Assembly: GCA_963771075.1 (NCBI GenBank)
Contig: CAVYSE010000011.1
Coordinates: forward strand, 224,001-288,000
Origin: a candidate division FCPU426 bacterium
GTDB taxonomy: Bacteria > Oederibacteriota > Muellerivitia > Muellerivitales > Muellerivitaceae
Direction: 5' to 3'
Length of the DNA stretch: 64,000 nucleotides
The stretch's first letter is position 1; each line of letters starts with the position of its first letter. Of this stretch, positions 27,880-52,364 are shown piece after piece. The notes beneath the pieces are model-generated. The model was not told the DNA's origin and did not search any database. It worked only from the letters and a program-made list of their open reading frames with translations. Both the position numbers and the translations under genes were made by a program.

Positions 27880-30800
27880 ATGTTTGTTTTGGAAAAATTT
27901 TTTACCCACTTGATTGGAGTTGTTGTTTTTTTAATAGCCCTTTCCGTTCAGGCCAATGTTCCGGGTGGCGGCACGGGTACTGGCGGCAATGTCACCGTCA
28001 CGACCAACGGCACGAACGTGACACTGGCCAACGGCATCGTCTCCTTCACCATCAATACGACCAACGGAAACGTCACAAATTTTACCTATAACGGGACGAA
28101 CCTTTTGACGGGGGGAAATGGCGGCGGCTACTTTTACTTCGATGGGTCCGGCGGGCCCACATTGGCAAACCCCACCTACACCTTGACCGTGAATCCCGCT
28201 AATAACGGCGGTAACCAGGCGGAAGTATTTCTCCAGACGATCGCCAGCCCCATGGACATGGGAGTTTATTACGATCTGCTGCGGGGACAGCAGGGAATTT
28301 ACAATACGCTGGTTCTCACACACGAGGCCAGCTACGTCGACTATCCCGGTGCGGAGCTACGCTCAAATGTCTATGTAGGTTCCGCCTTCGATTGGATCGT
28401 CATAGATCCCTATCGTTTCCGGCAAATGGCCTCGCCCTCGGACACTTACATTGCCACTCCCGGCGCTCCCGCGGAAGTGTTTGATTTTACCAGTGGCATT
28501 TACAGCGGCACGACAGGCTGCAAATATTCCTACAGCGACCCGCTGGGGGAGCTCAATACATGGGGTTGGGCTTCCACGACTTCCCAAAACGGAATTTGGC
28601 AGGTCGTCCCCAGCCACGAGTATTACGATGGAGGGCCTCTGCACCGGGAGCTCACCGCCCACCTTGGGAATACCCTGTTGAATATGTTCGGCGGCGGGCA
28701 CTACGGTTTTGGCCTGACCCAAGACCAGCCCGCGGGCACATTCTCGTCCAAGACATTCGGGCCGGCTTTCATTTACGCCAACACCTATACCGGTTCCGCC
28801 AGCGATCCCGTTTCCCTCAAAGCCCGTACCCTTTGGGCCGACTCCCAAGCCCAAGCCGTCGCCGAGCAGGGCGCCTGGCCCTACACTTGGTTCAATCCCC
28901 AGCCCTTACCGGGAAGCGGCGGTTCGGCCTACCCGCAAGCTTCCGGCCGAGGCACGGTGAGCGGCACCCTGACAATCAACGACCCCTACAATTCGGGTGC
29001 CTCGCCGGTCAGCCTGTGGGTGGGGATGGCCCCCGTTGATGGAGGGGTGGACTTTCAACAGCAATACTTGACTTACCAGTTCTGGGTTAGGACCGGCGCC
29101 GGAGGGACCTTTACCATTCCCAACGTGGTTCCTGGAACCTATAACTTGTGGGCTTTCGGTCCAGGTGGGGTCGGCACATATGAAGACGCGAACCTGACCG
29201 TAAACGCGGGTCAGTCCTTGAACCTAGGAACTTTGACTTGGGCGCCCCTGCGCCTGGGCCCCACAGTGTGGGAGATCGGAACCCCTGACAGGGATTCCAA
29301 CGAATTCAACAATGGGGACCATGACGTGGCACCCTATAGCAGCGTCCTGCCTCCCTACGCCGGAGGTGCCCCCTATAACACCCCCGCGGACTGGGCCGCT
29401 TTCCTGGACTATGCGACCCAATATCCCAACGGGGTCAGCTATGTCGTAGGCACCAGTCATTACTCTACGGATTGGAATTATTGCCAGCCGACTACCCTCG
29501 ACGCCGCGACCACCACCTATGGGGGCACGACTTCCAAGATCTATTTCAATTTGGCGACAGCGCCCACAGCGGCCCAGAACGCCCGCCTTTACATCGCTTT
29601 TGCGTCCGTTTTTGACGCGGCTTGCATCCTTACGATCAATGGGACCGTCCAAACCGCATCGGTCATGGGCTCCACGGATGGTACTTATGCCACGATCACC
29701 AACGCGACCACCGGTTTTTACCCTCCCAACGTGAGTTTCGACTCCATCGTGCGCCTGGGTACCCAAGGTTCCTGGGGGGACGCCTACCTGGATTTCGCGG
29801 GCAACAAGCTGAAGGCGGGGACAAATGAGATCGACATTGGTATGAGGGCGACCGGCGGCGCCGGAAACGGAAACGGATTCGAGTACGACTATGTGCGGCT
29901 TGAACTGACCGGATATGCAACATCTACTCCCACGCCTTCGGGTGCAAATACCGCCACCTACACCACTACCCCAACCAAGACGGGTACGCCGACGGCGACC
30001 AACACCAGCACTGCGACCCGAACGTGGACGACCACCTATACAACCACTAGAACCCCGACCGCGACCATGACCCAAACCTACACGGCCACCTGGACTAACA
30101 CGCCAACCGCTTCCTTGACGCGCACGGCGACTGGTACCCCGACCCGAACCCTGACCTCCACCGCGACCCAGACCAATACCTCAACACCCGCTTTTACCAC
30201 TACCAATAGTCCGACAGCCACATGGACCAGCACTTCGACGGCTTCTTTCACGCGTTCGGCGACCTCAACTTGGACCTCATCGTCCACCCCCACAGCGACC
30301 GAGACCAGTTCATTTACCGCTTCTTTCACCCGTTCCGCCACACCCACCCTGACGGGGACTGACTCCCCGACCGTCACCGCGACTTTGACCTATTCTTCCA
30401 CACCGTCAAAAACATTCACGGCTTTGAATACGACGACGTCCACTTCCACCCCGAGCGTTACCCCCACTCCAACCATGACTTCCACGGCCACCCCAAGCTC
30501 CACGGCGACATCCACAAGGACCTTTGCATCAACCCCAACGGCGACTGAGACCAGTTCATTCACTGCTTCTTTCACCCGTTCCGCCACACCCACTCTGACG
30601 GGGACTTACTCCCCGACCGCCACCGCGACCTTGACCTATTCCTTCACGGCGACCAAGACTTCCACCCCCGTGAACACACCGACGATCACATCCACCCCGG
30701 TCTTGACCCCCAGCGTCACGCTCACCTATTCGATGACGTCGACATCAACCCAAACCCGCACACCGACTTGGACCCCCACGGCCACCGCTACAGGCACGGT

Positions 30801-31896
30801 AACGGGCACCTGGACTGCGACCGATACGGCCTCTTGGACCCATACCCCGGTTTCCACTCCTTCCGCCACATCCTCTTCTACCAGCTCACCCACACCCATC
30901 TTCACGACAACCCAGACCCTTATTCCCGTGAATACCGTCTCGCCAACCGTGACCTCAACCCCGTCCAGTTCTTCCACCCATACCGCCACCGCGACCCAAA
31001 CTGAAACCTCAACGCCCAATGACACGGTCACCACCACACCGACGGTTACGCTGACGATTAGCTCCTCCCCCACGAATACATCCGTTTGGAGCCCTACTCC
31101 GAGCTTTACCCATACCGGGACCGCTACGCCGACCTGGAGTTTCACCTCGTCCTCGACCCCGACGCCTAGCGCGACCTGGACCACGACTTTATCCCCGGTC
31201 TTCACACCGACGTCCACGCCGACAGGTACGATGACGACTACGGTCACCTTGACCGCTACCCCCTCTTCTTCGCTGACCCCCACCCATCCCTACACAAGCA
31301 CCCAAACCCTGACGGCTACCTCCACTCCGACGCCTAGCGTGACTTGGACCAGGACTCCCACGGTCACCTCAACCCTTTCCTGGACGTCGACGAATTCCTT
31401 TACACCCACCTTTACCTCCACCCTCACCGCGACCTCGACGCCGACTTGGACCCTGACCTATACGCCAACCGTTACCTCGACCTGGACTTCAACCCAAACG
31501 ACCACCTGGACGAATACTCCGACCTTCACCCCCACGGTTACGGTCACCGCGACGGCCGTGCCTTGGACGCCAACCGCTACCTCAACCCCGACAGGCACTT
31601 CGACTCCCGGCCAAACGCCATCGGCGGTGATCTATCCCAACCCGGCTCCAGGGCCTGGGCCTATTACGCTGCAATTAACTCTGCCCAAGCCCGAATCCCA
31701 GGTGACGATCTCGGTCTATACAACCGCCTACCGGCGGGTGAACGAGATCATCCTAAACAATGTTCAGGCGGGGACCACGGAAGTGCCCTTACCTTTGACG
31801 AGTAAATACGGCACCGCCTTGGCGAACGGCCTTTATTACGTGGTGGTCAAGTACCCCCAGGGACAAATCATCCTCAAATTATTGGTCTTGCGGTGA
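27880..31896 (+). CDS. Secreted PL4 rhamnogalacturonan lyase + ~570 aa Thr-rich stalk + C-terminal sorting-like domain
   Basis: KY, E..GGP..ELTAH, GGHYG, WPY.W, YQFW, VWEIGTPDR, YDYVRLE; C-terminus IYPNP...ANGLYYVVV...KLLVLR. Confidence 0.88.
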   Translation: MFVLEKFFTHLIGVVVFLIALSVQANVPGGGTGTGGNVTVTTNGTNVTLANGIVSFTINTTNGNVTNFTYNGTNLLTGGNGGGYFYFDGSGGPTLANPTYTLTVNPANNGGNQAEVFLQTIASPMDMGVYYDLLRGQQGIYNTLVLTHEASYVDYPGAELRSNVYVGSAFDWIVIDPYRFRQMASPSDTYIATPGAPAEVFDFTSGIYSGTTGCKYSYSDPLGELNTWGWASTTSQNGIWQVVPSHEYYDGGPLHRELTAHLGNTLLNMFGGGHYGFGLTQDQPAGTFSSKTFGPAFIYANTYTGSASDPVSLKARTLWADSQAQAVAEQGAWPYTWFNPQPLPGSGGSAYPQASGRGTVSGTLTINDPYNSGASPVSLWVGMAPVDGGVDFQQQYLTYQFWVRTGAGGTFTIPNVVPGTYNLWAFGPGGVGTYEDANLTVNAGQSLNLGTLTWAPLRLGPTVWEIGTPDRDSNEFNNGDHDVAPYSSVLPPYAGGAPYNTPADWAAFLDYATQYPNGVSYVVGTSHYSTDWNYCQPTTLDAATTTYGGTTSKIYFNLATAPTAAQNARLYIAFASVFDAACILTINGTVQTASVMGSTDGTYATITNATTGFYPPNVSFDSIVRLGTQGSWGDAYLDFAGNKLKAGTNEIDIGMRATGGAGNGNGFEYDYVRLELTGYATSTPTPSGANTATYTTTPTKTGTPTATNTSTATRTWTTTYTTTRTPTATMTQTYTATWTNTPTASLTRTATGTPTRTLTSTATQTNTSTPAFTTTNSPTATWTSTSTASFTRSATSTWTSSSTPTATETSSFTASFTRSATPTLTGTDSPTVTATLTYSSTPSKTFTALNTTTSTSTPSVTPTPTMTSTATPSSTATSTRTFASTPTATETSSFTASFTRSATPTLTGTYSPTATATLTYSFTATKTSTPVNTPTITSTPVLTPSVTLTYSMTSTSTQTRTPTWTPTATATGTVTGTWTATDTASWTHTPVSTPSATSSSTSSPTPIFTTTQTLIPVNTVSPTVTSTPSSSSTHTATATQTETSTPNDTVTTTPTVTLTISSSPTNTSVWSPTPSFTHTGTATPTWSFTSSSTPTPSATWTTTLSPVFTPTSTPTGTMTTTVTLTATPSSSLTPTHPYTSTQTLTATSTPTPSVTWTRTPTVTSTLSWTSTNSFTPTFTSTLTATSTPTWTLTYTPTVTSTWTSTQTTTWTNTPTFTPTVTVTATAVPWTPTATSTPTGTSTPGQTPSAVIYPNPAPGPGPITLQLTLPKPESQVTISVYTTAYRRVNEIILNNVQAGTTEVPLPLTSKYGTALANGLYYVVVKYPQGQIILKLLVLR
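30549..31894 (+). repeat. Copy 1 of a ~1.35 kb near-identical repeat (stalk + CTD); copy 2 at 33541-34886
   Basis: Constant offset of 2992; only one mismatch noticed (near 30594); identity ends inside the stop codon (TGA vs TAA). Confidence 0.92.
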
Positions 31897-31900
31897 AGAA

Positions 31901-34888
31901 ATGAAGCGAATGAAGCTTTCATGGGCTCGGATCGGTAATTCCGCGATCCTTGGGGTAGTTCTTCTGGCTTCCGCGGGCCTTACGCCTTCATTCGGACAAA
32001 CTATCAACATCACTTCCGCCCCCTATAACGCCTCGACCGGAAGCGCCGACAATGCCGCCGCCATCCAAGCGGCTGTCAACGCGGTCGGAAGTGGAGGGAC
32101 TGTGCTGGTTCCGGCTGGAACCTTTTTGAGCGGTCCGGTAACGCTTAAAAGCAACATGACCTTCCAGCTTTCCGCGGGCGCCACACTGCAAATGACCGCG
32201 ATGGGGACATTCCCGACGACGGGGGATTTGCTATATGGGTCCAGTTTGACAAATATCACGATCAATGGAAGCGGCGTCATGGACGGGCAGGGGGCGGCCT
32301 GGTGGGCCGCTTTTAACGCCGATAGTTCCACCGCCAGGCCTGCCGCCATGATCTATTTGACCAATTGCACGGGCGTGACCCTCACCGGGATCACGGTGCA
32401 GAATTCACCCATGTTCCATATCCAACTCCTGGGAAACGGCAGCAATATTTACGCCTCGGGCTTGAGCATTACGGCGGCCTGGCCTTCACCCAATACCGAT
32501 GGGATCGATTTACGGGGTAAGAACGTATTGATCGAGAATTGTTATATCAGTGACGGGGATGATTTGATTCAACTGGGAGGGACCCAGGCGGTCCAAGGAG
32601 TCACGATCCAAAATTGCACCTTTGGAACAGGGCACGGCCTTTCCATCGGGGGTTATACCCAAGGCGGGGTCCAGGACCTTTTGGTGAACAATTGCACCTT
32701 CAACGGCACCCAATACGGCATACGATGGAAATCCGGCCGCGACAGGGGAGGAACGAATACAAACCTGACATACTCCAACATTACCATGACCGGAATCCTG
32801 GATTATCCCTTTTATCTTACCAGCTGGTACCCCGCCAATCTTCCTCCCGCGTCGGATACCGCCGCTCCCGTTTCCGCGACCACGCCCTATTGGGAAAATA
32901 TCACTTTGCGGAACATCACGGCCTCGACCGCTTCCGGGGCCAAGGGACCCGGTATTTTCTGGCCCGTGCCCGAAGCGCCGGTGACAAACCTGTTGTTCGA
33001 CGGGGTCACGGTGACCGGACCCAGTGGAATTACTTTCGACATCCATCATGGGCGGGCGGTCACCTTTACCTGCACCTGCCGGATTGACGGGGCCCAGCCT
33101 CCGACCAATGTGGGCTCTTACGACGCGGATATTGTTTATCCCGCCTGTGGGTCCAACCCAACGGCCACCATGACGGGTCCGATACCAACGTTAACCTTAA
33201 CCCGTACGGGTACGCCGACCGCGACCTCCACCAGCACTGCGACCCGAACGTGGACGACCACCTATACAACCACTAGAACCCCGACCGCGACTGCGACCTT
33301 CACCCTGACCCATACCTCCACGGCCACCTGGACTAACACGCCAACCACTTCCTTGACGCGCACGGCGACTGCTACCCCGACCCGAACCCTGACCTCCACC
33401 TCGACCCAGACCTATACCTCAACACCCGCTTTTACCACTACCAATAGTCCGACAGCCACATGGACCAGCATTTCGACGTCTACCTTCACCCGTACGGCGA
33501 CTTCTACATGGACCTCATCGACCACCCCCACGGCGACCCAGACCAGTTCATTCACTGCTTCTTTCACCCGTTCCGCCACACCCACCCTGACGGGGACTTA
33601 CTCCCCGACCGCCACCGCGACCTTGACCTATTCCTTCACGGCGACCAAGACTTCCACCCCCGTGAACACACCGACGATCACATCCACCCCGGTCTTGACC
33701 CCCAGCGTCACGCTCACCTATTCGATGACGTCGACATCAACCCAAACCCGCACACCGACTTGGACCCCCACGGCCACCGCTACAGGCACGGTAACGGGCA
33801 CCTGGACTGCGACCGATACGGCCTCTTGGACCCATACCCCGGTTTCCACTCCTTCCGCCACATCCTCTTCTACCAGCTCACCCACACCCATCTTCACGAC
33901 AACCCAGACCCTTATTCCCGTGAATACCGTCTCGCCAACCGTGACCTCAACCCCGTCCAGTTCTTCCACCCATACCGCCACCGCGACCCAAACTGAAACC
34001 TCAACGCCCAATGACACGGTCACCACCACACCGACGGTTACGCTGACGATTAGCTCCTCCCCCACGAATACATCCGTTTGGAGCCCTACTCCGAGCTTTA
34101 CCCATACCGGGACCGCTACGCCGACCTGGAGTTTCACCTCGTCCTCGACCCCGACGCCTAGCGCGACCTGGACCACGACTTTATCCCCGGTCTTCACACC
34201 GACGTCCACGCCGACAGGTACGATGACGACTACGGTCACCTTGACCGCTACCCCCTCTTCTTCGCTGACCCCCACCCATCCCTACACAAGCACCCAAACC
34301 CTGACGGCTACCTCCACTCCGACGCCTAGCGTGACTTGGACCAGGACTCCCACGGTCACCTCAACCCTTTCCTGGACGTCGACGAATTCCTTTACACCCA
34401 CCTTTACCTCCACCCTCACCGCGACCTCGACGCCGACTTGGACCCTGACCTATACGCCAACCGTTACCTCGACCTGGACTTCAACCCAAACGACCACCTG
34501 GACGAATACTCCGACCTTCACCCCCACGGTTACGGTCACCGCGACGGCCGTGCCTTGGACGCCAACCGCTACCTCAACCCCGACAGGCACTTCGACTCCC
34601 GGCCAAACGCCATCGGCGGTGATCTATCCCAACCCGGCTCCAGGGCCTGGGCCTATTACGCTGCAATTAACTCTGCCCAAGCCCGAATCCCAGGTGACGA
34701 TCTCGGTCTATACAACCGCCTACCGGCGGGTGAACGAGATCATCCTAAACAATGTTCAGGCGGGGACCACGGAAGTGCCCTTACCTTTGACGAGTAAATA
34801 CGGCACCGCCTTGGCGAACGGCCTTTATTACGTGGTGGTCAAGTACCCCCAGGGACAAATCATCCTCAAATTATTGGTCTTGCGGTAA
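31901..34888 (+). CDS. Secreted GH28 polygalacturonase-like enzyme + ~490 aa stalk + C-terminal domain
   Basis: PNTDG, GDD, GHGLSIG and RWKS (variant of RIK) GH28 motifs. Confidence 0.9.
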   Translation: MKRMKLSWARIGNSAILGVVLLASAGLTPSFGQTINITSAPYNASTGSADNAAAIQAAVNAVGSGGTVLVPAGTFLSGPVTLKSNMTFQLSAGATLQMTAMGTFPTTGDLLYGSSLTNITINGSGVMDGQGAAWWAAFNADSSTARPAAMIYLTNCTGVTLTGITVQNSPMFHIQLLGNGSNIYASGLSITAAWPSPNTDGIDLRGKNVLIENCYISDGDDLIQLGGTQAVQGVTIQNCTFGTGHGLSIGGYTQGGVQDLLVNNCTFNGTQYGIRWKSGRDRGGTNTNLTYSNITMTGILDYPFYLTSWYPANLPPASDTAAPVSATTPYWENITLRNITASTASGAKGPGIFWPVPEAPVTNLLFDGVTVTGPSGITFDIHHGRAVTFTCTCRIDGAQPPTNVGSYDADIVYPACGSNPTATMTGPIPTLTLTRTGTPTATSTSTATRTWTTTYTTTRTPTATATFTLTHTSTATWTNTPTTSLTRTATATPTRTLTSTSTQTYTSTPAFTTTNSPTATWTSISTSTFTRTATSTWTSSTTPTATQTSSFTASFTRSATPTLTGTYSPTATATLTYSFTATKTSTPVNTPTITSTPVLTPSVTLTYSMTSTSTQTRTPTWTPTATATGTVTGTWTATDTASWTHTPVSTPSATSSSTSSPTPIFTTTQTLIPVNTVSPTVTSTPSSSSTHTATATQTETSTPNDTVTTTPTVTLTISSSPTNTSVWSPTPSFTHTGTATPTWSFTSSSTPTPSATWTTTLSPVFTPTSTPTGTMTTTVTLTATPSSSLTPTHPYTSTQTLTATSTPTPSVTWTRTPTVTSTLSWTSTNSFTPTFTSTLTATSTPTWTLTYTPTVTSTWTSTQTTTWTNTPTFTPTVTVTATAVPWTPTATSTPTGTSTPGQTPSAVIYPNPAPGPGPITLQLTLPKPESQVTISVYTTAYRRVNEIILNNVQAGTTEVPLPLTSKYGTALANGLYYVVVKYPQGQIILKLLVLR
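33541..34886 (+). repeat. Copy 2 of the ~1.35 kb near-identical repeat
   Basis: See 30549-31894. Confidence 0.92.
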
Positions 34889-35361
34889 AAGCGGCATTTG
34901 ACTTTGGAAAATGGAAGGAAAGATGAAATTTTTTTTGGGGATCTTATTTGTGTCGGGGTTTTGGGTTTGAGTTGGTTGTGTGCGTTCCATCAAAGTTACT
35001 CTTACCTACCTATCCGAATCTTAAACCAACAGAGACTTCCACGCCTTCGAGCACAATGACTTCCGCTCCAACCGAAAGCTTTTCAACCCTGGCCACCATT
35101 AGCTTTTCGCCAACTCCCTCTCTTTCTACGACCCTTTAATCATAAAAAGGGTCTGTGTGAGGGCATTTTGGGATGTTTTTTTATTTCCTTAAAATTGCAT
35201 TGAAATTAGATAAGGTAAACCGTGAAACAAACTAGTGTTTTTACCCCTGAAAATGGAATAATTCGGTAAACTTTGGTACCGGTACAAATCGTTATAAGCT
35301 TTCAATGTAACCGGTTTAAAACGATTTTAATTTGAGTAAAAAAGGTTTTACGGCTGTGAAC

Positions 35362-38300
35362 ATGAGATTGAAGTCTCAAATAATTCAAAAAGTCCTGACC
35401 TTAGGTTTAGTCCTAGTGAGTGGACCAGTTTTGGGCCAAACCACCATAACCATAAATGCCGCTACCACCCTGGTCACGATTCCCAACACCATTTATGGCA
35501 ACAACGCCCAATTCTACAACGCGCACAATAATGGGGCGGATACCACTTATAACACCGCCATGCAGGTATCCGGCTGTCGTAGTATCCGTTGGCCGGGAGG
35601 TTCCGAAGCCGACCAATCCGATTGGAACAATCTCGTTTGCTGGGACGCGGGGGCGGCTACAACCCCCCAGTTCATTACTTTTCTCCAAACCTTCGGCGGA
35701 ACAATGCAGCCCATCGTGAATGGCAGCGGCATATGGTGCAGTGGAGGCTCCGGGGCCGGCGCGCCCACGACCTTTACCCACGCCGCGGCCGTGAGTCTGG
35801 CGGAGGCTTGGGTTACCTGGAACATGACCAACACGGGTTCGGCCAGGGCTAAGTATTGGGAAGTGGCGAACGAAATCTATGGAAATTGGGAAGTCGGCGG
35901 CCAAGGATCAACCGGAAGCAACCTGACCGGCACCCTATACGGGACTGACTTCGCGGATTATTACAAAGGGATGAAGGCCATCGATTCCACCATCCAGGTC
36001 GGGGCGGTGGCCTCACCCGGATCGGGGGATTACAGCAACTGGACACCCAACATGCTCGCCGCCGCCAAGGCGGCCGGGGTTGTGCCCGACTTTCTCATTA
36101 TCCACAATTATCCCGTCGCGTCCGGCGGGGCGGGCCAGGCCACGGACTCCCTAATCCTGAGTTATCCGTCGACCGTCGCGACCCAAACGGCCAGCCTGAA
36201 CAGCATCGTTTCATCCTCCCTTGGAAGTTCTTACGTCGGGCAAGTCAAATACTTCATGACCGAGTTTAATTCCACTCTGGGTCCCCTCGCCCAAAGCGAC
36301 GAGTACGTGAACGCCATGTTCGTGGCCGAATGGGTCATGGAGTGCGCGAAAAACGGATGGATCGGCGCCAACCTGTGGGCCACTGAGAACGGGGGGACCC
36401 CCGACTATGGTTTCCTCAACACGACAACGGATGTCCCTTTCCCGGATTATTACTCTTACGCAATGTTGACGAGCAAATTTGGGGTTACCATGGTTTCCTG
36501 CTCCAGCAGCGCCGCGACGGTGAGTTCCTACGCGGCCATGAATACCTCGGGGAATCTGACCCTATTCATGGTCAATAACAATCCTAGTGCCACCGAGACG
36601 GCGACCATTAATATTTCCGGATTTACACCGGGCGCTTCGGGCACGGCCTGGGTCATGCTGCCTTCCGGCGCTACCGGAGGTGTTAGTCAGGAAGCAACGG
36701 GAATTCTCGTTAATGGGACCGCCAACCCGGCGCCCAGCGCCATCACTGGCATCGCGGGAACGACCCAGACCACCAGCACCTCTTTCACGGTGACTCTGCA
36801 ACCCAATGAGATGTACCTGATCGTTATACCCGGCACCTCCAGCTCCAACCCAACCCCCACCCCGACCAAGACCAACACATTGACCTCGACCCCTACCCGG
36901 ACTTCTACCGCGACCTCGACCGCAACCCCGACCCCCACCCGGACTTTCACGTCCTCCCCCACCACTAGTGTCACCTCTAGCCCCACGGTAACAACCACCA
37001 AAACCTCTACTTCAGCCTCGACAGCTACAGCCAGCTGGACCCCGACCCGGACTCCCACGCCGACTCTGACCCCGACCTTGACCCTGACGCGGACCAACAC
37101 CGCCTCGAATACCCCCACGAATTCCACCACCGCCACACCCACCTTGACCAATACCCGGACGCCTACCGCGACTTCAACCAATAGGGTGATGAATACCTCC
37201 ACGGCCACATGGACGATCACTGGGACCGCTACCTCAACATCCACCTTTACCCCAACTCCGACGCGGACCTTCACGAATACGGCGACCGCCACCGCCACTA
37301 ATACCCCCCCGAATACAACCACCCTGACCCCGACGATTACTTTGACAAGCACCTCGACCGCGACGCGCACCTCGACTGTGACCTCCACTTCCACGGTTAC
37401 CTCAACCGCTACGAACACATCGGTGAATACCACCACGCTCACACCCACCCGTACGGTGACATCGACCTATACTTCGAGCTCTTCTCCCACCGCCACCCGC
37501 ACTTCAACCGCGTCCTCGACCGCCACGACCACGGGCACTTCTACCGTGACGCCCTTGTTTACGGCCTCTAGTAGCACCACGCCGTCCGTCACCCTCTCTT
37601 GGACGGCAACAAACACCCCCACCGCCTCCGGGACATTGACCCGAACCTTCACAACCACCTCTACCCCGACTCTTACCTCGACCCATACCAATACGATCAC
37701 ATCCAGCCCGACCGCCACGGGAACACCGACCCAGACTCCGACCGCGACGGCCACTTTGCAGTTGAGCGCGACGAATACGCTTTCGCCAACGGTTACGTTG
37801 ACCTCTACGGAGACCAACACCTTTAGCTCAACGAGGACCTGGACGACGACGATCACCCCGACCTCGACCTTTACCGCGACTTCATCGGCGTCTACGACCC
37901 CGACTACGACGGCAAGCTCCACGAGGACTTCAACCGCGACTTCCACCTCGACGGCCTCGGGCACTCCCACCCTTACGGAAACAGCCACATCCACCTTCCC
38001 GCTGAGCCCGACCATTACCTTGACCCCGACCCTCACCCTTTCATCGACCGCGACGCAGACCCACCCCCCCACGGATACCTCGACTCAAACCTTGACGGCT
38101 ACTTTGACCTCCACCCTGACCCCAACCCGTACCCCGACGTCGACCTATACGACAACCGATACGGCCACGGGAACACCCACCCCAACCGGAACGCTGACGG
38201 CCACGATTCCCTTTAGTCCGACCGTGACGGCATCCCCCACGGTCACTTCGAGCTCAACCATGACATCCACGACGACAGCGACCCTTACGTCGACATGGAC

Positions 38301-42026: not shown

Positions 42027-42148
42027 TTGCCAGGATTCGGTTTTTATTAGGCGCGGATTCAGTGGTTTTTCCTTATTCCGCAAACCTCGATCCTCCCAGA
42101 ATAAAATCTTACGTGACTATTTTTCGTGAAGCGGGTTAACCTGGGGGC

Positions 42149-43954
42149 ATGGCTAAACGCCCTTCCGAACCCTTCAAGAATATTTTTGAGTATGAAAGCT
42201 TCCTGACCATCCTTCGGTATTACGTCGACCTGAATTGTTTCGTTATTCCCGCCGACCCCGGGACGGGGGCGAAGGACTGGCTGGCGGTGAACTATCACCA
42301 GCGACAGGCCTCCCTGTTCGATTTCGAGAAAAAATACAACTGGAAATTTAATTGGGACAAATTAGTCGATCCCCTTTATGAGAGCCAACAGGGTAAGCAT
42401 CAACCGCTTCTCCTCGAGACACTGGGTTTTTACGATATTTTCATGCCCATCCGCCGGGGAAGGGAAAGGCTGGGGACCGTTTTTTCGGGAGCTTTCGCCA
42501 AGGGCGAAGTGACCTATCCCCTATTGCGGTCGAGTTGGAATCAATTGACAAGACAAACGGCGTCCCCTGAAAACGCGGAATTCCGGCAATTCGCGCGGGT
42601 GATGCTGGAAACCCCGGTATTCGATGACCCAACCCTCAATGCCTACCGGGAAGCCCTTGAATTGTTTGCCCGCGTGATGGCCTATGAGAACAATCCCCAC
42701 ACGGCCAAGAGGCTCCAGGAATTATTAACCCGGGTTTTCTCCAAGCGGTTTGTCCACAGTTACTTCATGGGTTGGGCCCTTGGGATTTCCACCCGCCAGG
42801 CCACACCGATTTGGAACATCGGCTTGGAAAAGATGGACTGGATCAAAACCGAAATCGGTATCACCCGTATCCCCACTTGCGTCCTGGCGGTCATCCCTTT
42901 AAATACCGCCGGAAAAAAGCGGGACGCGGTAGAGGAAATGATCCGGATCTACCGGTTTCAACGGCGCAGTTTCATGTTTGCCCAAACGCTTCCCCAAACC
43001 GTCGGAGGTCCACTCGAAAACTACGGGGCTCTTTTCGTTACCTCCCCCGACCCCGCCCCCAGCCGGCTCCAAAGGCGCAGGCGAATTTCCGACATCGCCG
43101 AACGAATCCATCAATTCGCCATGGAAGAGCTGGGCGGCCCGGTCCTAGTCGGGATCGGGGAGTCGGTTACTCCTGGAGAAATTTTAAGCGAATCCTACCG
43201 GCAGGCGGTATTGGCCCTGCACCTGGAAAGGGGGACGAGCAGCGGGGTGGCCTTTTTCAATCAGGGCCGAAAGGAAAAAAAAGAGGGTATATTGGAAATC
43301 ATGCGGTTGGTCCGTGAATTGAGCGGCCACATTATGAGTGCTTCCTACTCAAGCACGGACGCCGTTTTGGATGAGTTCCTCCAGCAGGTTCTCACCCTAT
43401 CCATGCAAGATCCGGAAGAAATACGCCGGCATTTACAATACGCGTTGATCCAATTGATCGAGGCGGTGAAAACCCGGGTTGGTTACCAGGATAAACTCTC
43501 CGACCAGCTGCGTGAACAACTGGTCCTTTCGCTGGAAAAAGCGGGGACCACGCAGGACACGGTCTTGGTATTCAAGGACGCGCTGGAAAAACTTTTGTAC
43601 ATGACCCAAGGACCGGGGACTTTGAACGCGGTGTTCTCCATGGAGGAAGTCCGGGCTTTCGTGGATGGACACTTCCGGGAACCGATCAAGCTCAAACGAC
43701 TGGCAAAGATGGCAAAGGTGTCCGTCTCAACCCTCAGCCGAAGGTTCAAGGCGGCGACCGGCGTGGGTTTGGAAAATTATCTCCAGAACTTGAAGTTGGA
43801 GGAGGCTCGGCGTTTGTTGAAGACCGGAAGCCTTCCGGTCGCCCAAGTGGCGAAGTTTTGCGGATTCAAGCCCGGCTCCCATTTTTCCAGATTTTTCAGA
43901 AAAAAAACGGGTATTTCCCCTCAACTGTTCCGAGTTAAGTCTCCGCGCGGTTAA
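42149..43954 (+). CDS. AraC-family regulator with a large N-terminal sensory region
   Basis: C-terminal double HTH (LAKMAKVSVSTLSRRFK; VAKFCGF...HFSRFFRKKTGISP); CdaR-like middle region VGIG...SYRQA. Confidence 0.88.
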   Translation: MAKRPSEPFKNIFEYESFLTILRYYVDLNCFVIPADPGTGAKDWLAVNYHQRQASLFDFEKKYNWKFNWDKLVDPLYESQQGKHQPLLLETLGFYDIFMPIRRGRERLGTVFSGAFAKGEVTYPLLRSSWNQLTRQTASPENAEFRQFARVMLETPVFDDPTLNAYREALELFARVMAYENNPHTAKRLQELLTRVFSKRFVHSYFMGWALGISTRQATPIWNIGLEKMDWIKTEIGITRIPTCVLAVIPLNTAGKKRDAVEEMIRIYRFQRRSFMFAQTLPQTVGGPLENYGALFVTSPDPAPSRLQRRRRISDIAERIHQFAMEELGGPVLVGIGESVTPGEILSESYRQAVLALHLERGTSSGVAFFNQGRKEKKEGILEIMRLVRELSGHIMSASYSSTDAVLDEFLQQVLTLSMQDPEEIRRHLQYALIQLIEAVKTRVGYQDKLSDQLREQLVLSLEKAGTTQDTVLVFKDALEKLLYMTQGPGTLNAVFSMEEVRAFVDGHFREPIKLKRLAKMAKVSVSTLSRRFKAATGVGLENYLQNLKLEEARRLLKTGSLPVAQVAKFCGFKPGSHFSRFFRKKTGISPQLFRVKSPRG

Positions 43955-44229
43955 ACGAGAAAATTTCCTGATTGAACCGGTTACTTTTCGCATGAAATAT
44001 AAGTCCATATGAATGACGTTTTTAGACCAACCACCTTTTCGGCTGACGTTGTGCCTTGTTTTACTTAGCGGTATCTTTTGAAAGCCGGGGATTTCCTTTA
44101 TTGAATAAAAGCGCTTCCTTGGCTTAAAAGGAAATCGTTTTTGGGAATGAGAAAGGCTGAATCCTTTCTCCGAAAAACAGAACGGGTCAAGACCGATAGT
44201 CCCGTCTAACTAAATGGAATGGTTCCAAA

Positions 44230-47200
44230 ATGATTTTTAAATCGAAACTTTGCCTAGTTTCGGCTTTTATACTAGGTATCTTCGGGGGAATGCTTTCGGG
44301 CGAGAACCGTGCCGAGGCGCAAACCGTCACGGTCACCTCCGGCACGACTTATCAAACCATCTCGGGTTTCGGCGCGTCCAGCCAATGGGACAACACCTTC
44401 TCATCCTCGCTCGCGGACACCTTCTGGTCGGACGATTCGAGCCAGCCTCCCGCCAGCCAGGTGAACGGCAATGTCGGTCTTTCCATCCTCCGCCTCGGAA
44501 TTGACGACTCCGGCAACGCCAACTGGGGTTCCCAATGCGCCTTCGCGACCCAGGCGCTGGGCATCAACCCCAACGTCAGGGTCTTCGGCAGCCCCTGGAG
44601 CCCGCCGGCCAAGTGGAAGAACAACAACAGCGTGGACGGCAATAACACCGGCAGCGACGGCTTCAATCCCGGCGCCAACACCAACCAGCTCAACACCGCG
44701 GAATTACGGCAGACTATGCCACCTACCTAACCAGCTTCGCCACCGCCTGCAAGAACACCTACGGCTTTACGCCCTACGCGATCTCGGTCCAGAATGAACC
44801 GGACTACGACCCCAGCTACGACGCCTGCCTTTGGTCGCCCTCGGCCATTGACACCTTCATCGGGACTTATCTCGGCCCGGACCTCAATGCCGCCGGCTTC
44901 ACCAACATCGTCATGATGCCGGAATCCTTCGCGGACAACTTGACCGGGGCCAACACCGCCATGGGAGATTCGAACGCGGCGAAATACGTGAAGGTCATCG
45001 GCATGCACCTCTACGGCGGCGGCCCCAACACCATCCCGTCCAGCTATTCCACCACGGCCGGCCACACCGTCGAAAGCTGGTGCACCGAAATCTCGGAAAA
45101 AACCAGCGACAACAACATCGACAGCGGCGTTTACTACGCCGGCCAGCTTCACAGCTGCATCGTGGACCACAATTTCAACGCCTATTGCTACTGGTGGCTC
45201 GTCCCAACCGGAACCGACGACGAGGGGCTCTGCGACAGAGCAGGCAACCCCACCAAGCGCCTCTACTACGATCGGCAATTACAGCAAGTTCATCCGCCCG
45301 GGTTACGTGCGCATCGGCGCCACCGAGGTGCCCTCGGCGGGCGTTTCCGTTTCCGCCTACTACAGCTCTACCGATGGGTAAGGTCGTGATCGTGGCCATC
45401 AACAGCAATACCGGCTCCACCGAGAGCGAGAACTTTCAACTACAGCGACCTGAACGTGTCTACGGTCTATCCCTGGATCACGGACTCGACCGATAACCTG
45501 GTCCAGCAGACGTCGGTGGCCGTCAGCGGAGGAAAATTTACCTATACCCTGCCGGCGGAAAGCGTGTGTCAGTTTCGTGGCATCGGTTTCCGGAGGCTCG
45601 ACCCCGACTACGACCCCCACCCCGACCCTGACTGGGACGAGAACGGGAACGCCTACCTATTCCTCCACTCCCACCGTCACCCGGACGTTGACTCCTGCCA
45701 ACTCCCCAACTTCGACCTTTACGAGGACCTTGACGGTTACCAGCACTTCCACACCGACCCAAACGACCACCCTCACCTCCACGGTGACTTCGACTCGCAG
45801 TTCCAGCCCGACATCGACCAACACTCCTTCTTCTACTTTCACAAACACAGTGTCTTATACAGCGACCCCCACCCGAACCTTGACGCCAGGAAACACCCCG
45901 ACATTAACGCCCACTTCCTCATCGACCCTGACAGCCACCCCGGTTTTCACGGCCACCGCGACGCCCACCCGGACTTCAACCGCGACGAATACCTCGACCG
46001 TTACTTGGACTTCCACTTCGACGCCCCCATTCACCCCGAGCGCTACTTTATCCTTCACGCCCTCACCCACCCAATCCACGACTCGGACTTTTACGGCGAC
46101 CAACAGCCCTTCCGCGACAACGACCTTCACCTCAACGAATACCCCGACTTCCACGAATACCACGACCCCAACCCGCACCCTGACTCCCACGGTCACCGGA
46201 ACCTCAACCGCCACTTTCCCCTTCAGCCCGACGGTGACTTTGTCTCCAACCTCCACCTTTACCGGCACTATGACCGCAACCCACACCTCCACAGGAACGT
46301 TCACGGGTACGGCAACATCCACCTCAACCTTTACCCCGACCCATACCTCCACCGCTACTTATACAGGTACCGGAACCTCCACGCCGACGGCCACCCATAC
46401 CTTGACGCCCACAAATTCCGCAACATCCACCGTAACGGGTACCTCCACGGCCACCTTCCCCTTCAGCCCTACGATTACCCTATCGCCGACGGTAACGCTG
46501 ACACCTACCTCGTCTTCCACTCCGACCGCCACCACCACCTTGACTTCGAGTTCTACCCCGACCTCGACCCATAGCCTAACGCCCACCGATACATCGACTG
46601 CCACGAAAACTCCGACCTTTACGCCGACGGCAACCAACACCCAGACGTGGTCGCCTACGGCCACCTTCCCCTATAGTCCGACGGTGACCCTGTCCCCCAC
46701 AACCACTTACACTGGCACGGATACGGCGACCCCCACTTGGACTTTCACCTCAACCTCCACCTTTACTTCGACTTCGACTCACACCTTCACGGCCACCGCC
46801 ACGGCCACCCCAACATCGACCCCCACTTCAACTTCGACGGCCAGTCATACTTTCACCGCCACTTCGACGCCAACCTCCACCCCCACCTTTACCACGACCC
46901 CCACGGTGACCTCGACGCGGACCTTTACCCCCACTTCAACCATGACTTCGACCTATACGTCGACCGCCACCGCGACCACGACCTTCACCCCGACCGAGAC
47001 TTTCACGCCCACCTCGGCCATCGTGAATATCAGCTCAACCTCATCCACCTTCAATACACTTTCCGGGTCCGCCGGCGTCACGGCAGTATCCGCGAACCTC
47101 AGCGATCCAAGCGCATTAGGGGTCAACCTCACGAATATCACGGTCAGCGACCTGGGCGGCAACGCGGCGAATGTCACATCCATCAGTGTTTATTTGAACG

Positions 47201-47880
47201 GAATACTTCAGTCTACCGTCTCCGGGTTCACCGGCAATACGGCCACGCTGAGTCTGGGTAATTTCCTGGTCTCGTCCTCGCCGGTCAATGTACAGGTATT
47301 GGTGAACTTCTCCCCCTCCGCCTTTGGCACCTATGAGTTCTCCGTCAGTGGGTTGACGGGAACCAGCGCCAATAACGGGGGACAGCCGGTGTCGATCACG
47401 GGCCTGCCGGTTTCGGGCAACACGGTGAACTGCCAGCAAGCCACGTCCACGCCCACCCAAACCTCCACACCCACCCACACCTACACCTATACCGCCACAC
47501 CGACGCTGACCCCCTCGGTGACATGGACCGCGACCTCCACCTGGACGATCTCGGCCACCAGGACCGGAACGATCACCCCGACCTTTACGCAAACGCCGGT
47601 ACCCCAAAAGATACCGATCCTTTATCCCAACCCGGTGACCGGACCGACGGTGAATGTGCTTCCGCCCAGTTACACGGGAATCTCGACGGTGAGGGTGGAG
47701 ATCTTCACGGTGAATTACCGGATGGTCGTGGATGAGACCTTCTATTCCGTACCCTCCGGAACCAGTGTGACCGTCAACCTGACGAGCAAATGGGGAAGCA
47801 CCCTGGCGAACGGATTGTATTACGTTGCCGTAACGGTGGATGGTCACCGTAGTATCGGAAAATTACTCGTATTGAGATAA
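44230..47880 (+). CDS. Secreted GH30 (xylanase-like) hydrolase + ~475 aa stalk + Ig-like insert + CTD, broken by about six +1 frameshifts
   Basis: YQTISGFGAS, GLSILR, SPWSPPAKWK, SVQNEPDY, WCTE, AYCYWW and SKFIRPG are recovered across changing frames; ends GKLLVLR. Confidence 0.85.
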
Positions 47881-47944
47881 GCAAGGCCAATCACGCGGGA
47901 TTTGAAGATCCCGCCGGGCCAACCATAGACAAGGGCCTTCGTGC

Positions 47945-50848
47945 ATGGAACCCGTCCGGCGAAACCGACATATTTTGAATGGTTCCTTTTTTGCCATTCT
48001 ACCATTGGCCCTGTTCCTTGGAACGGTTACACCAGCCCGGGCGGCCAACAAAAATTATTGCGTGAACGTCGATTATTCGGCTGTCCCTACCCTGTGTAAT
48101 TACGAGAAGATCACCCTGATCGTCAACGTGGGCACCTGCGCCTCCGTGGCGGTCACGGCCGACGGGGCCGCGGTGACAGGCGCCACCTACAATTCCTCCG
48201 CCGGAACAGCCATGTTCACTACCACGGGCAAATCCATCGTGGTGACCGCGCAAAATTGGACAACGGGCGGGACGGGCGCGGCTACCAAGGCCACGCTCTA
48301 CAATAATTTTCATTGGGCCTACTCCCTCACCTTTGACGATGGCAGGCTCACCCAATACGAATACGGCAAACCTCTTTTGGATGCGTTGGGCTGGAGGGCC
48401 GGGTCGGCGGTTGTAGCTTCCTGGGCCAACACGGGCGGAGGACCCGGGAGCGGCAATTACTATATGAATTGGGCAACCTTGCAGGCCTTGAGAACGGCAG
48501 GATGGGATATCTTCAACCATTCCTACGATCATCCCAGCCCTGGATTGACCTGCACCAACATGGTCACCGAGTTCGGGCAGAACCAAACTTTCCTTCAAAC
48601 CAACTTTCCGGGCTTCAACGTCACCCATGTGGTTTTTCCCTATGAAACCGACGCGGCGCTGCCCTGTACCGGCTTCCCCCCCACCTATATCCTCTCGGGG
48701 GAATGCGGAGGCGGTTCCTATAACTATGTGGATACCAACGTCAATTCCACGCTCATATTCCAACGCGGCGGCATGTTTGGAACCGACGACACCGCTTGGA
48801 AATCGCTGGCGGCCGCCGCGGAAAGCCAGACCCGGTCCACCTGGCTCATTGAATATACCCATAGCGTCTCGCAGGGCAGCGGGGCCGCGGCCGACGCCTA
48901 CAGTACCAACCAGACCACCCTGACGGACCTGTTCAACTACTTGAACACGAATTTCGCCGCCTCGGGCAATAACAGCATGTGGTTCGCGCCCGCCGCGGAA
49001 GTACGGGACTACCTCTTCACCCGGGACAACGCGGTGGTGACCACCTGCACCGTGAATACGCCCACCTTTACCTCCACCCCGAGTTCCACCGCAACAGCGA
49101 CGAGGACGAACACCCCGGCCAATACCGCTACCCTCAACTCGACCCCGACCAAGACCTCCACTCCAACTTCAATCTCAACCTGGACCCCAACCCGAACCAA
49201 TACCCCCACCCAGTCCATGACGCTATCCCCAACGGCGACCTTGACTCCGACCTTTTCTCTTACCCTGACCCGGACCAACACCGTCTCATATACCCCCGCG
49301 AATTCCACCACCGCCACGCCCACCTTGACCAATACCCGGACGCCTACCGCGACTTCAACCAATACGGTGATGAATACTTCCACGGCCACATGGACGATCA
49401 CTGGGACCGCTACCTCGACATTAACCTATACCCCGACGCGAACCTTCACGAATACGGCGACCGCCACCGCCACCAATACCCCCCCGAATACAACCACCCT
49501 GACCCCGACGATTACTTTGACAAGCACCTCGACCGCGACGCGCACCTCGACGGTAACTTCCACTTCCACGGTTACCTCAACCGCCACGAACACATCGGTG
49601 AATTCCACTACCTCCACACCCACCCGTACGGTGACATTGACCTATACTTCGAGTTCTTCTCCCACCGCCTCCCGCACTTTAACCGCATCATCGACTGCCA
49701 CGTCCACGGGCACTTCTACTGCGACGCCCTTGTTTACGGTTTCCATTACCTCCACGGCTTCCGCCACCCCGAGCGCCACACCCACAACGGTTTTTACCCG
49801 GACAGTGACCGAAACCTTGACCCGCACTCCGGTGAACACCCTGACGATCACCTCCACTTCCACCTACCCCGCGACGCCGACCGGAACCTTCACTTCATCA
49901 CCTACCCAACCCCCATCGCCCTCCGAAACCCCCACCTTCTCGTTTACTTCGACGGGGACCGCTTCCGAAACAACCACACCAACGCCGCCTTTTACGCCGA
50001 CACACACGGCAACGTCCGTTTATACGATCACCTACAGCCCGACCCTGAGCTCCACCCCTACCCTAACTGACACCCTGACCTGGACCGCCACTGAAAGCCC
50101 CAACCCTAGCCAAACCCCGACCCCGTCTTTCACCTGGAGTTCGACAGTGGTATTCACCTTGAGCGCCACCCAGACCTTTACCCCCAGTTCTACAGCCTCT
50201 TTCACCCCCACCGGCTCCCACACGGGAACCCCTACGATGACCCCCACGGCTACCCTTTCATTGACACCCACCCTTACCCCAACCTCCAGCTTGACCACCA
50301 CACAAACATGGACCCGAACAACCACCCTGACTCTCACCAACACCGGGACCCCCACGGTAAGTTGCACATCCACCTACACTTCAACCGCCACACCCACCCC
50401 GACCCTTACCCGAACCTATACTTCAACTCCGTTTCCCACGGTCACTTCCACCCCAACCCTCACCTCCACCCTCACGTTTACGGCCACCCTGACCTTCACC
50501 CTTACCCAAACCCATACCCCAACTTCCACCGAGGTTAATACCCATACCGCGACCCCGGTTCCTTCCGTACCGCCGGGCACGTTAGGGCTTTATCCCAACC
50601 CCGTCACGGGACCGACGGTGAATGTCCTTCCCCCGGATTACACGGGGCCCGCGAATGTTCGGGCGGAGATTTTCACGGTGAATTTCCGGAAGGTGTACGA
50701 TCGTACTTTCGATTCCATCCCAACCGGAACGGCTATATCCGTCACTTTGACCAGCTGGGGCGGGAACGGGCTCTCCAATGGGCTTTATTACGTGGTGGTG
50801 ACGGTGGATGGGAAACGAACCATCGGGAAACTCTTGATCTTGAGATAA
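47945..50848 (+). CDS. Secreted CE4 polysaccharide deacetylase + ~510 aa stalk + CTD
   Basis: LTFDDG, NHSYDH, FPY NodB motifs; ends GKLLILR. Confidence 0.87.
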   Translation: MEPVRRNRHILNGSFFAILPLALFLGTVTPARAANKNYCVNVDYSAVPTLCNYEKITLIVNVGTCASVAVTADGAAVTGATYNSSAGTAMFTTTGKSIVVTAQNWTTGGTGAATKATLYNNFHWAYSLTFDDGRLTQYEYGKPLLDALGWRAGSAVVASWANTGGGPGSGNYYMNWATLQALRTAGWDIFNHSYDHPSPGLTCTNMVTEFGQNQTFLQTNFPGFNVTHVVFPYETDAALPCTGFPPTYILSGECGGGSYNYVDTNVNSTLIFQRGGMFGTDDTAWKSLAAAAESQTRSTWLIEYTHSVSQGSGAAADAYSTNQTTLTDLFNYLNTNFAASGNNSMWFAPAAEVRDYLFTRDNAVVTTCTVNTPTFTSTPSSTATATRTNTPANTATLNSTPTKTSTPTSISTWTPTRTNTPTQSMTLSPTATLTPTFSLTLTRTNTVSYTPANSTTATPTLTNTRTPTATSTNTVMNTSTATWTITGTATSTLTYTPTRTFTNTATATATNTPPNTTTLTPTITLTSTSTATRTSTVTSTSTVTSTATNTSVNSTTSTPTRTVTLTYTSSSSPTASRTLTASSTATSTGTSTATPLFTVSITSTASATPSATPTTVFTRTVTETLTRTPVNTLTITSTSTYPATPTGTFTSSPTQPPSPSETPTFSFTSTGTASETTTPTPPFTPTHTATSVYTITYSPTLSSTPTLTDTLTWTATESPNPSQTPTPSFTWSSTVVFTLSATQTFTPSSTASFTPTGSHTGTPTMTPTATLSLTPTLTPTSSLTTTQTWTRTTTLTLTNTGTPTVSCTSTYTSTATPTPTLTRTYTSTPFPTVTSTPTLTSTLTFTATLTFTLTQTHTPTSTEVNTHTATPVPSVPPGTLGLYPNPVTGPTVNVLPPDYTGPANVRAEIFTVNFRKVYDRTFDSIPTGTAISVTLTSWGGNGLSNGLYYVVVTVDGKRTIGKLLILR

Positions 50849-52276: not shown

Positions 52277-52364
52277 GGAAAACACTCCTCTTCAGCGATC
52301 CAACGGTAGGATAGGGTTTAGACGCCTTTCAGAGGGCCTTCCCCCCGCCGGTTAGAAGGCCATC

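Follow-up and report, generated by a model that had tools for sequence, protein, structure and literature searches.

Stalked carbohydrate-active enzymes of an FCPU426-type bacterium as probable cargo of a reduced type IX secretion route with SprA and PorV-family carriers

The window analysed here is a stretch of 64,000 nucleotides from the genome (G000, 96.7% complete) of a bacterium described as an uncultured soil organism, whose relatives in the phylum are soil and peat bacteria. Six genes for stalked carbohydrate-active enzymes (CAZymes) lie on its forward strand, largely as a sequence-only reading of the DNA had described them, and all six follow the plan proposed there: putative signal peptide, enzyme, (Thr-X)n stalk of 460-760 residues and C-terminal tail of ~88 residues. 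Gene 1 (27880..31896) encodes a putative signal peptide, a PL4 rhamnogalacturonan lyase extending to about residue 675 (PF14683 and PF14686), a Thr-rich stalk of ~575 aa and a type A-like C-terminal domain (CTD, 31627..31893) that is identical to the CTD of gene 2 and scores 25 bits against TIGR04183 on the last 90 aa. Gene 2 (31901..34888) encodes a putative signal peptide, a GH28 polygalacturonase (PF00295, E 8e-50), a stalk of ~490 aa and a CTD (34619..34885; FlgD_ig 28.8 bits). Gene 3 (35332..39363, probably starting at the ATG at 35362) has a stalk of ~760 aa, including a ~125-aa non-repetitive insert also present in gene 5, and the CTD used for the folded model (39100..39360; TIGR04183 28 bits). 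Its head had been named GH51-like; it matches no Pfam family, reaches E 0.027 with NF051901 and lies closer to GH39 (E 7.5e-6) than to GH51 (E 0.003) in the PDB, and by these matches is better called an unassigned GH39/GH51-like head. Gene 4 (39567..42026, probably starting at the ATG at 39573) joins a GH12 head (PF01670) to a stalk of ~460 aa and a CTD at 41763-42023. Gene 5 (44230..47880) has a broken GH30 head (NF052681 on the gene pieces, PF02055 on an intact relative), a stalk and a CTD at 47617-47877, and gene 6 (47945..50848) a CE4 polysaccharide deacetylase head (PF01522), a stalk of ~520 aa and a CTD at 50585-50845. An AraC-type regulator (42149..43954, forward strand) sits inside this run, and in two relatives (G033 and G021) its orthologues have cargo genes of this kind around them. 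On the reverse strand are a seventh tagged gene (681..2348; vWA domain, short stalk, divergent CTD) and a divergent neighbour (25491..27566) whose product, a GH127 beta-L-arabinofuranosidase, lacks a CTD and has a hydrophobic anchor at its N-terminus.

The head of gene 5 is interrupted by six single extra bases (44699, 44712, 45267, 45376, 45433 and 45567), as compared with a 90%-identical intact relative; related contigs cover four of these sites and lack the extra base, and the breaks are either an assembly error or recent decay. Genes 1 and 2 have 1396 bp in common at 99% (stalk and tail, the last 1396 bp of gene 2) and genes 3 and 5 have 916 bp in common at 85%, which means that the six tails cannot be counted as independent of one another. 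The occurrence of near-identical cassettes behind unrelated heads shows that heads have been swapped onto common stalk-and-tail cassettes by recombination. The genes had been called Shine-Dalgarno-led; judged by eye, such a sequence is clear before gene 1 and the picture is mixed before the others. The N-termini look signal-like by eye, and a crude hydrophobicity test is passed by 71% of 85 tagged ORFs vs 42% of 1741 others.

All six tails end in KLL[IV]LR-stop. This terminus is invariant in the window as claimed, but of the genome's 105 tagged ORFs 21 have it, which makes it a local subtype, and the middle part of the longer motif proposed for the tail ([VL]V.V) is not an exact fit in genes 1, 2 and 5. 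A Lys six residues from the end is found in 84 of the 105 tagged ORFs and in all six window genes, and K82 is conserved in at least 90% of 46 aligned tails. Against TIGR04183 (curated cut-off 23 bits), four of the six cut-out tails score above the cut-off (25, 25, 28 and 26.4 bits) and two below (19.3 and 20.5), whereas none of the six full-length ORFs exceeds it (10.5-20.1 bits). With 36 of the 46 aligned tails matching TIGR04183 at E<=0.01, the suggestion of a sharply distinct CTD subfamily is not upheld. The closest matches in both sequence and fold are the Porphyromonas gingivalis tails of PorU (carried on PorV) and PorZ (carried on PorQ; PDB 6ZA2, 5M11), which lead the comparison of the tail profile with the PDB (E 6e-10 and 4e-7) and are followed by NucA. 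The gene 3 tail is predicted to be an Ig-like beta-sandwich (pLDDT 95.8), with the PorU tail as best structural match (Z 11.7, rmsd 1.8, 85 residues aligned) and the mirolase tail at Z 10.4. By sequence and predicted fold, the tail is a type IX secretion system (T9SS) CTD of type A.

A generic FlgD-type Ig domain or carbohydrate- or surface-binding module without an export role, with exit by another path such as a type IV pilus secretin, is a very unlikely alternative. FlgD_ig matches genes 1 and 2 at 26.6-28.8 bits, FlgD itself has a tail-type fold by profile comparison, and that fold occurs as tandem internal repeats in many proteins of other organisms; G000 also has what we take, by eye and from sequence motifs, to be a pilB/pilT/pilC/pilM-Q-like locus. 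However, 99 of 102 tail domains in G000 are terminal, those of the window all at the extreme C-terminus, and they keep the final Lys strand that most internal repeats lack (these cover profile positions 5-77 only). The same tail is attached to proteases, propellers and enzymes for different sugars, and tagged genes show linkage to porV and sprA, as described below. T9SS tails make up five of the top seven structural rows, and the lower rank of carbohydrate-binding modules (Z 7.7-7.8) disfavours that reading.

The six genes do not form a special battery, for about 100 genes of G000 have this design (102 domain hits; 105 tagged ORFs), and tail matches number 15-123 per phylum genome. Among 40 sampled cargo heads, 13 are CAZymes and 3 are proteases, by which the tagged cargo looks extracellular.

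As had been suspected from the gene order, the host is not a member of the Bacteroidota, and we infer an FCPU426/Goldbacteria-type phylum. In a RecR check the nearest named genomes are 50-57% identical and the tree does not group the host with the Bacteroidota row; the phylum assignment itself comes not from RecR but from the SprA of a same-phylum genome (G012), which is 99.95% identical to an NCBI protein labelled candidate division FCPU426. The reported lack of a SusD or dockerin was borne out across G000, with no match to either and matches to both in control genomes.

A sprA homologue was found in 58 of 61 phylum genomes, although only 5 of the 61 exceed the model cut-off. The phylum's SprA (~1970 aa, with an FN3-like N-terminal part that matches PF00041 in relatives) is collinear with PDB 6h3i (E 1e-15), and the intact G033 protein passes the TIGR04189 cut-off (205.8 vs 200). 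A model of its last 1175 residues has ~26 long strands; its best match is SprA, at E 1e-35, followed by one at 3e-5. In a second structure ranking by Z, MtrB (17.6) precedes SprA (16.7), but only SprA aligns over ~1000 residues. SprA clusters scored 0.92 in a protein-cluster feature search, with no informative taxa, and the SprA tree follows the host families. On this sequence and model evidence, the host protein is a true SprA homologue. The G000 gene is split at a G8 run and is intact in all 12 relatives read, and in 9 of these 12 loci a tagged FN3 gene follows sprA. A SprA match is absent from three genomes (G037, G053 and G057; 120-270 contigs each) despite 36-66 tail matches.

PorV-family ORFs number 23 in G000, and matches occur in 26 of 26 phylum genomes. 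The PorV-family profile matches F. johnsoniae PorV at E 6e-29; the paralogues pass the family model NF033709 and stay below the PorV and PorQ equivalog cut-offs. Eleven of the 23 lie directly behind a tagged gene, compared with 44 of 3866 other ORFs (Fisher p 2e-15), and none of the five scanned among these 11 cargo genes was recognised as a CAZyme. No carrier gene of their own accompanies the six window genes. The likeliest shared carrier of their tails is a stand-alone PorV (G000:C1:153808) that has an orthologue in every other family genome searched.

Remaining components were judged against the TXSScan set (10.1101/031039), and no canonical T9SS was recovered: SprA and PorV were present, but neither PorU nor GldK/L/M/N. 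GldM gave no match in any of 26 phylum genomes; the search was positive in 7 of 31 Bacteroidota genomes. GldL, Plug and PorP/SprF each gave no match in three phylum genomes and were found in the G096 control. GldN matched in 0 of 26 phylum genomes, although no control genome matched either; a profile from six true GldN sequences, like the purpose-built GldL and GldM profiles, had no match in G000. A weak GldL match of a three-sequence profile proved to be a coiled coil resembling chemotaxis receptors and was lost once the profile comprised six sequences. PorU exceeded its cut-off in 0 of 15 genomes and in both controls (24 candidates scored per genome). A C25 domain was found in none of 11 genomes of the host's family and present in 4 of 26 phylum genomes (families f10 and f7), so the lack of a tail-cutter applies to the host's family and not to the whole phylum. 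In a control genome (G064) comparable with the Ignavibacterium and Melioribacter set discussed below, PorU, a PorZ-like gene and Plug were found and GldL/M/N were not. Since SprA and PorV homologues are present, the exporter is T9SS-related, one of the two options that had been raised, and not novel.

It is also conceivable, but quite improbable, that the host's T9SS is complete and that its motor, hub and sortase have diverged too far for profiles to detect, with powered ejection, tail cleavage and LPS anchoring. Other parts could be missed because SprA itself is ~25% alike and mostly under its cut-off, the C25 domains of f10 and f7 point the same way, and a Skp gene lies ~8.5 kb from sprA. 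The best G000 match of the SprE/PorW model (53 bits vs a cut-off of 250) is a partial one to a 1010-aa generic TPR protein; G096 has a similar weakly scoring 1010-aa TPR protein beside its true SprE, and the G000 protein therefore probably belongs to that other TPR family. Against divergence, GldK exceeded its cut-off in 0 of 61 phylum genomes and gave no first-look candidate in the near-complete genomes G015, G012, G036, G041 and G005, and G000 matches of the PorZ model are confined to the tail region. G000 has a single GldK-like match, to an FGE-domain protein of 401 aa whose gene is not part of any gldKLMN-like operon.

From these results we propose, with a probability of about 0.72, that the six enzymes are cargo of a reduced T9SS route made of SprA and PorV-family carriers. 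The enzymes would leave the cytoplasm by Sec through their putative N-terminal signal peptides, after which the terminal beta-sandwich would act as a type A CTD. By homology with F. johnsoniae, the tail would attach to loops of a PorV-family barrel seated in the SprA pore, and exit would be through the SprA lateral gate, both parts being present. With PorU undetected, cleavage of the tail is improbable. By analogy with PorU on PorV and PorZ on PorQ, the enzyme could well stay docked on PorV, the (Thr-X)n stalk carrying its head outward, for which we put the chances just short of even; shedding of the whole enzyme is only slightly less likely, and processing of the tail by an unrecognised enzyme is unlikely. 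In F. johnsoniae, cargo gets stuck on SprA when the motor is missing (available text of PMC10994853), so a motor-less route requires an extra release step. Carrier and cargo might be ejected by an energiser other than GldLM or leave by passive carrier exchange, both of which we favour over an unrecognisably diverged GldLM.

A specific version of this best explanation, though an unlikely one, has the SprA/PorV route driven by an ExbB-ExbD-TonB set after rpsA, joined by a TPR protein of ~1000 aa and a barrel-like protein of ~600 aa. The locus is kept in G000 (rpsA and tonB aside), G015, G008 and G027, ExbB and ExbD are confirmed, and no G000 protein matches the SprE model better than the TPR protein. 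Yet the locus is unlinked to sprA or porV, the G012 region examined had a different ExbB locus, other ExbB/MotA genes of G000 adjoin receptor-like or flagellar genes, and the TPR matches are unspecific.

The proposed SprA and PorV-family route shares with the Bacteroidota type A system (F. johnsoniae SprA-PorV; PDB 6H3I, 8GL6, 8GL8; TIGR04183/PF18962) a terminal Ig-like tail with near-terminal Lys, the SprA barrel, a PorV-family barrel and many hydrolase cargoes. It differs in having no detectable GldK/L/M/N, PorU, PorZ, Plug or PorP/SprF, in the FN3-like part of its long SprA and its many PorV paralogues, in tails of ~88 rather than 75 aa, and in a host that does not belong to the FCB group. 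P. gingivalis keeps the tails of PorU and PorZ, which remain attached to their barrel (PMC10202324, in the part available), but there uncleaved tails anchor two machinery proteins, whereas this tail type is found on ~100 cargo proteins of the host. In type B cargo (SprB-SprF) the cargo gene is linked to its own PorP/SprF carrier gene, according to the accessible text of PMC12618676; eleven host cargo genes likewise stand beside their own carrier gene, although the carriers are PorV-family, the tails type A-like and no PorP/SprF was found. Ignavibacterium and Melioribacter are described in the available portion of PMC11705866 as having SprA, PorV and Plug only, without other T9SS proteins; unlike the host's family, which has no PorU, PorZ or Plug, they lie inside the FCB group and have Plug.

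Reviews, in their available sections, confine the T9SS to the Bacteroidota or the FCB group (PMC10202324, PMC11205867), and in the literature covered (few subscription papers; main texts rather than supplements) there is no report on FCPU426, Goldbacteria or Elusimicrobia that describes SprA, PorV or CTD cargo. The CAZyme-rich Ca. Cellulosimonas argentiregionis, whose Goldbacteria cellulases are described in the accessible part of PMC7031533, is probably in the same phylum-level group as the host; the main text of that paper, as far as available, mentions no T9SS, stalks or linkers and leaves the export route unaddressed.

We tentatively suggest, as possible yet somewhat doubtful, that SprA, PorV and CTD form an ancient motor-free T9SS core, vertically inherited in the phylum, with the gliding motor, hub and sortase as later additions in Bacteroidota. 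If so, the core would also be common to Elusimicrobia-like lineages, and the host's family would work with neither known motor nor sortase. There, uncut tails would remain seated in an expanded PorV set and hold ~100 enzymes on stalks of up to 150-250 nm when fully extended; next to PULs and cellulosomes, this would be a third means of building a coat of plant-wall-degrading enzymes that stays on the cell. Such a history would be at odds with the proposed origin of the T9SS within gliding machinery (PMC12635249).

The GldLM motor is considered necessary for cargo to leave SprA (PMC10994853, as far as its text is available), and a phylum outside FCB that has SprA and PorV barrels by the tens without detectable motor, hub or, in the host's family, sortase lets the minimal cargo-release needs of the translocon be tested. 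The same phylum makes testable which came first, pore or motor. The finding offers an export route for the many CAZymes of these bacteria from soil and peat, and it points to a simple system for surface display.

Six plus-strand genes at 27880-50848 of the window encode proteins of one design, in which an N-terminus resembling a signal peptide leads into a catalytic head, then a long Thr/Ser/Pro region and lastly a tail of ~88 residues terminating in KLL[IV]LR; they are probably cargo of a reduced type 9 secretion system (T9SS) in a phylum outside the FCB group. The PL4, GH28, GH12 and CE4 heads proposed by the sequence-only reading were each confirmed by Pfam; the third, called GH51-like, has no Pfam family and only weak likeness to GH39 and GH51 structures. 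The fifth has the expected GH30 head but is in pieces, with six single extra bases relative to a 90%-identical intact relative in genome G021. Four of these places are covered by related contigs of other samples, none of which has the extra base; the breakage is therefore either very recent decay or an error in the consensus. The run also includes an AraC-type regulator, and genomes G033 and G021 carry the same heads (61-91% identical; no GH12 in the stretches retrieved), rearranged into different clusters together with the same regulator. A seventh tail-bearing (tagged) gene was found at 681-2348. The six are a typical sample of the roughly 100 tagged genes, and the interest lies in the system. 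The window also encodes a secreted-looking protein of 448 aa that is rich in Trp and Tyr over one region and unmatched in Pfam and NCBIfam (50939-52285, minus strand; the rest of the genome has about eight paralogous stretches); a BBP2 porin gene between two divergent KdpD sensor kinases (54053-56749, minus; 60651-63347, plus) that come with response regulators; and an AbiEi/AbiEii type IV toxin-antitoxin pair (5425-7016, plus).

In the 4.39-Mb host genome (G000), an iterated profile found the tail in 107 ORFs, with a terminal match in 105; a 46-row profile gave 104 matches, with 99 of 102 domain matches terminal. All 29 phylum genomes searched hold 15-123 tail matches, including three without a SprA match. 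TIGR04183 was passed by four of the six cut-out window tails and by none of the six whole ORFs; of 46 aligned tails, 36 matched it at E<=0.01. The closest solved relatives by sequence are the PorU and PorZ tails, and for the AlphaFold model (pLDDT 95.8) both Foldseek and VIA rank the PorU tail first (Z 11.7, rmsd 1.8). On sequence and predicted structure the tail is thus a type A C-terminal domain (CTD) of long form. FlgD is related more weakly, and the fold recurs elsewhere as internal repeats, most of which lack the last strand. The tails of PorU and PorZ are described as the known uncleaved ones, remaining bound to PorV and PorQ, respectively (PMC10202324). Among a random 40 of 73 eligible host heads, 13 were CAZymes (seven GH5, GH8, GH9, GH16, GH30, GH44 and one esterase), three proteases, six propellers, two weak propeller-model matches, three other and 13 without a family. 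A second cargo class has three tandem terminal tail-like domains closing with ...IGH.[ND]LK[IL]VVVR (C1:62486, C10:16176, C14:85747, C22:3470 and others). A tagged GH5 gene of 1494 aa occurs in two inverted copies with identical tails (C17:145828-150309, minus; C17:154591-159072, plus), either a duplication or an assembly artefact; near-identical cargo tails also occur on C8 and C11.

The stalks of the six genes span 460-760 residues (about 40% Thr, 15% Ser, 11% Pro), and Thr occupies alternate positions (recurrence 0.73-0.79 at lag 2 vs 0.06-0.09 at lag 1). This pattern points to an extended chain that would present Thr along one face and is likely to be a substrate for glycosylation; presumably the stalks resemble serine-rich repeat proteins. 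At least 100 stalk residues are present in 70 of 89 tagged ORFs (at least 300 aa) vs 47 of 1737 ORFs without the tail, the 47 including several missed or frameshifted cargo genes. Genes 1 and 2 have 1396 bp in common at 99%, and genes 3 and 5 have 916 bp at 85%; a GH5-headed gene on C14 is 98% identical to gene 3 over 2261 bp. Stalk and tail travel together as cassettes, and because these are near-identical between genes, the previously claimed invariance of the terminal KLL[IV]LR, although seen, partly reflects recent copying.

A homologue of SprA, the T9SS outer-membrane pore, lies at C20:131568-137530, split at a G8 run (apparent frameshift near C20:134800); each of the 12 relatives read has it intact (1851-2177 aa). 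A flagellar hook-like gene (C7:46000-49300) is apparently frameshift-split too, and the assembly thus carries indel errors. Host SprA aligns collinearly with F. johnsoniae SprA, the G033 copy exceeds the TIGR04189 cut-off, and a model of its last 1175 residues shows about 26 long strands with an end-to-end SprA match (E 1e-35). Of 61 phylum genomes sampled, 58 have a SprA match. Next after sprA comes a tagged FN3-repeat gene (C20:137464-142113), as in nine of the 12 relatives' loci across classes (L089-L094, L098-L100); its 750-1680-aa product with a terminal CTD may be a dedicated translocon partner: a lid, plug substitute or coat protein. Over C20:122567-131587, sprA adjoins skp, lipid A genes, lptF/lptG-like genes, which flank sprA in nine of the 12 relatives' loci, and a LytTR-type two-component pair; these names, Skp excepted, were assigned by eye.

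The host has 23 genes of the PorV (carrier barrel) family, 11 directly behind a tagged gene vs 44 of 3866 other ORFs. The paired cargoes within the head sample (n=5) are proteases, propellers or unassigned, with no CAZymes. A stand-alone PorV (C1:153808) is matched at 69-93% over its N-terminal piece, and at 59-86% over the mature protein, in 10 of 10 other family genomes and G027, and is a candidate shared carrier of the window enzymes. Two PorV-family genes with long C-terminal extensions lie within a flagellar gene cluster (C7:30325-34102).

The remaining T9SS parts were sought by profile searches, on which their absences rest, in a genome 96.7% complete. GldM was found in 0/26 phylum genomes (7/31 Bacteroidota genomes were positive), GldK exceeded its cut-off in 0/61, and GldN was found in 0/26, its controls being silent as well. 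GldL, Plug and PorP/SprF were each found in 0/3 phylum genomes; all three were detected in control genome G096. Profiles from six true gldKLMN operons recovered from the host a single FGE-domain protein. This sole GldK-like match, a 401-aa secreted FGE-sulfatase-domain protein (window 63371-64000, plus, continuing to C11:288573), lies outside any gldKLMN-like operon. PorU exceeded its cut-off in 0/15 genomes; the PorZ model matched the host through the tail only, and the SprE model gave only generic TPR scores. C25 (gingipain-family) domains occur in 0/11 family and 4/26 phylum genomes, within ~1200-aa proteins of families f10 and f7 only (G012:C2:433497, G036, G041, G019); some of the phylum may thereby have relatives of the sortase. 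SusD and dockerin are both absent from the host genome.

After Sec export, the folded tail would bind PorV loops within the SprA lumen, a step reported for F. johnsoniae to require no energy (PMC10994853), and carrier and cargo would exit through the lateral gate. Because PorU is absent, the tail would be retained, leaving the enzyme docked with its head at the stalk tip or shed whole. Ejection might be driven by an ExbB/ExbD/TonB set encoded next to a large TPR protein (conserved across four genomes of the order, unlinked to sprA) or by some other motor, or might proceed by passive carrier exchange. The ExbB/ExbD locus (C6:128508-134934; L175, L177, L178, L180) encodes a ~1000-aa TPR protein, a barrel-like protein (~600-700 aa, no family), ExbB and ExbD, with rpsA before and a TonB-like gene after in the relatives read.

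The system would work like the T9SS type A pathway, but falls short of the canonical T9SS on motor (GldLM), hub (GldKN) and sortase (PorU). Ignavibacterium and Melioribacter are reported with SprA, PorV and Plug only (PMC11705866), and in control genome G064 PorU, Plug and a PorZ-like gene occur without GldL, M or N; a motor-less translocon is therefore not unique to the host lineage, which differs in also lacking PorU, PorZ and Plug, in its expanded PorV family and in lying outside FCB. Cargo-carrier gene pairs are described for type B cargo (PMC12618676), and CTD-dependent, LPS-dependent anchoring for C. hutchinsonii cellulases (PMC12860637).

Host RecR stands apart from the Bacteroidota row, with no named relative above 57%, and SprA of G012 (same GTDB phylum) shares 99.95% identity with a protein that carries the label candidate division FCPU426. 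That cluster is placed with Goldbacteria, beside Firestonebacteria and Elusimicrobia (Doud et al., PMC7031533), and the sequencing runs in which the DNA is best represented are soil and bog metagenomes. In a 29-row SprA FastTree (midpoint root, long-branch warning), phylum rows group by genus and family, beside a clade with an Elusimicrobia-labelled protein and distant from a row that bears the name 'cell surface protein SprA'. Reviews treat the T9SS as confined to Bacteroidota or FCB (PMC10202324, PMC11205867, 10.1101/031039), and our search found no literature on a SprA/PorV/CTD export system in the host phylum. Liu et al. propose that the T9SS arose within the gliding machinery (PMC12635249); if SprA is vertical in this phylum, its distribution would challenge that origin.
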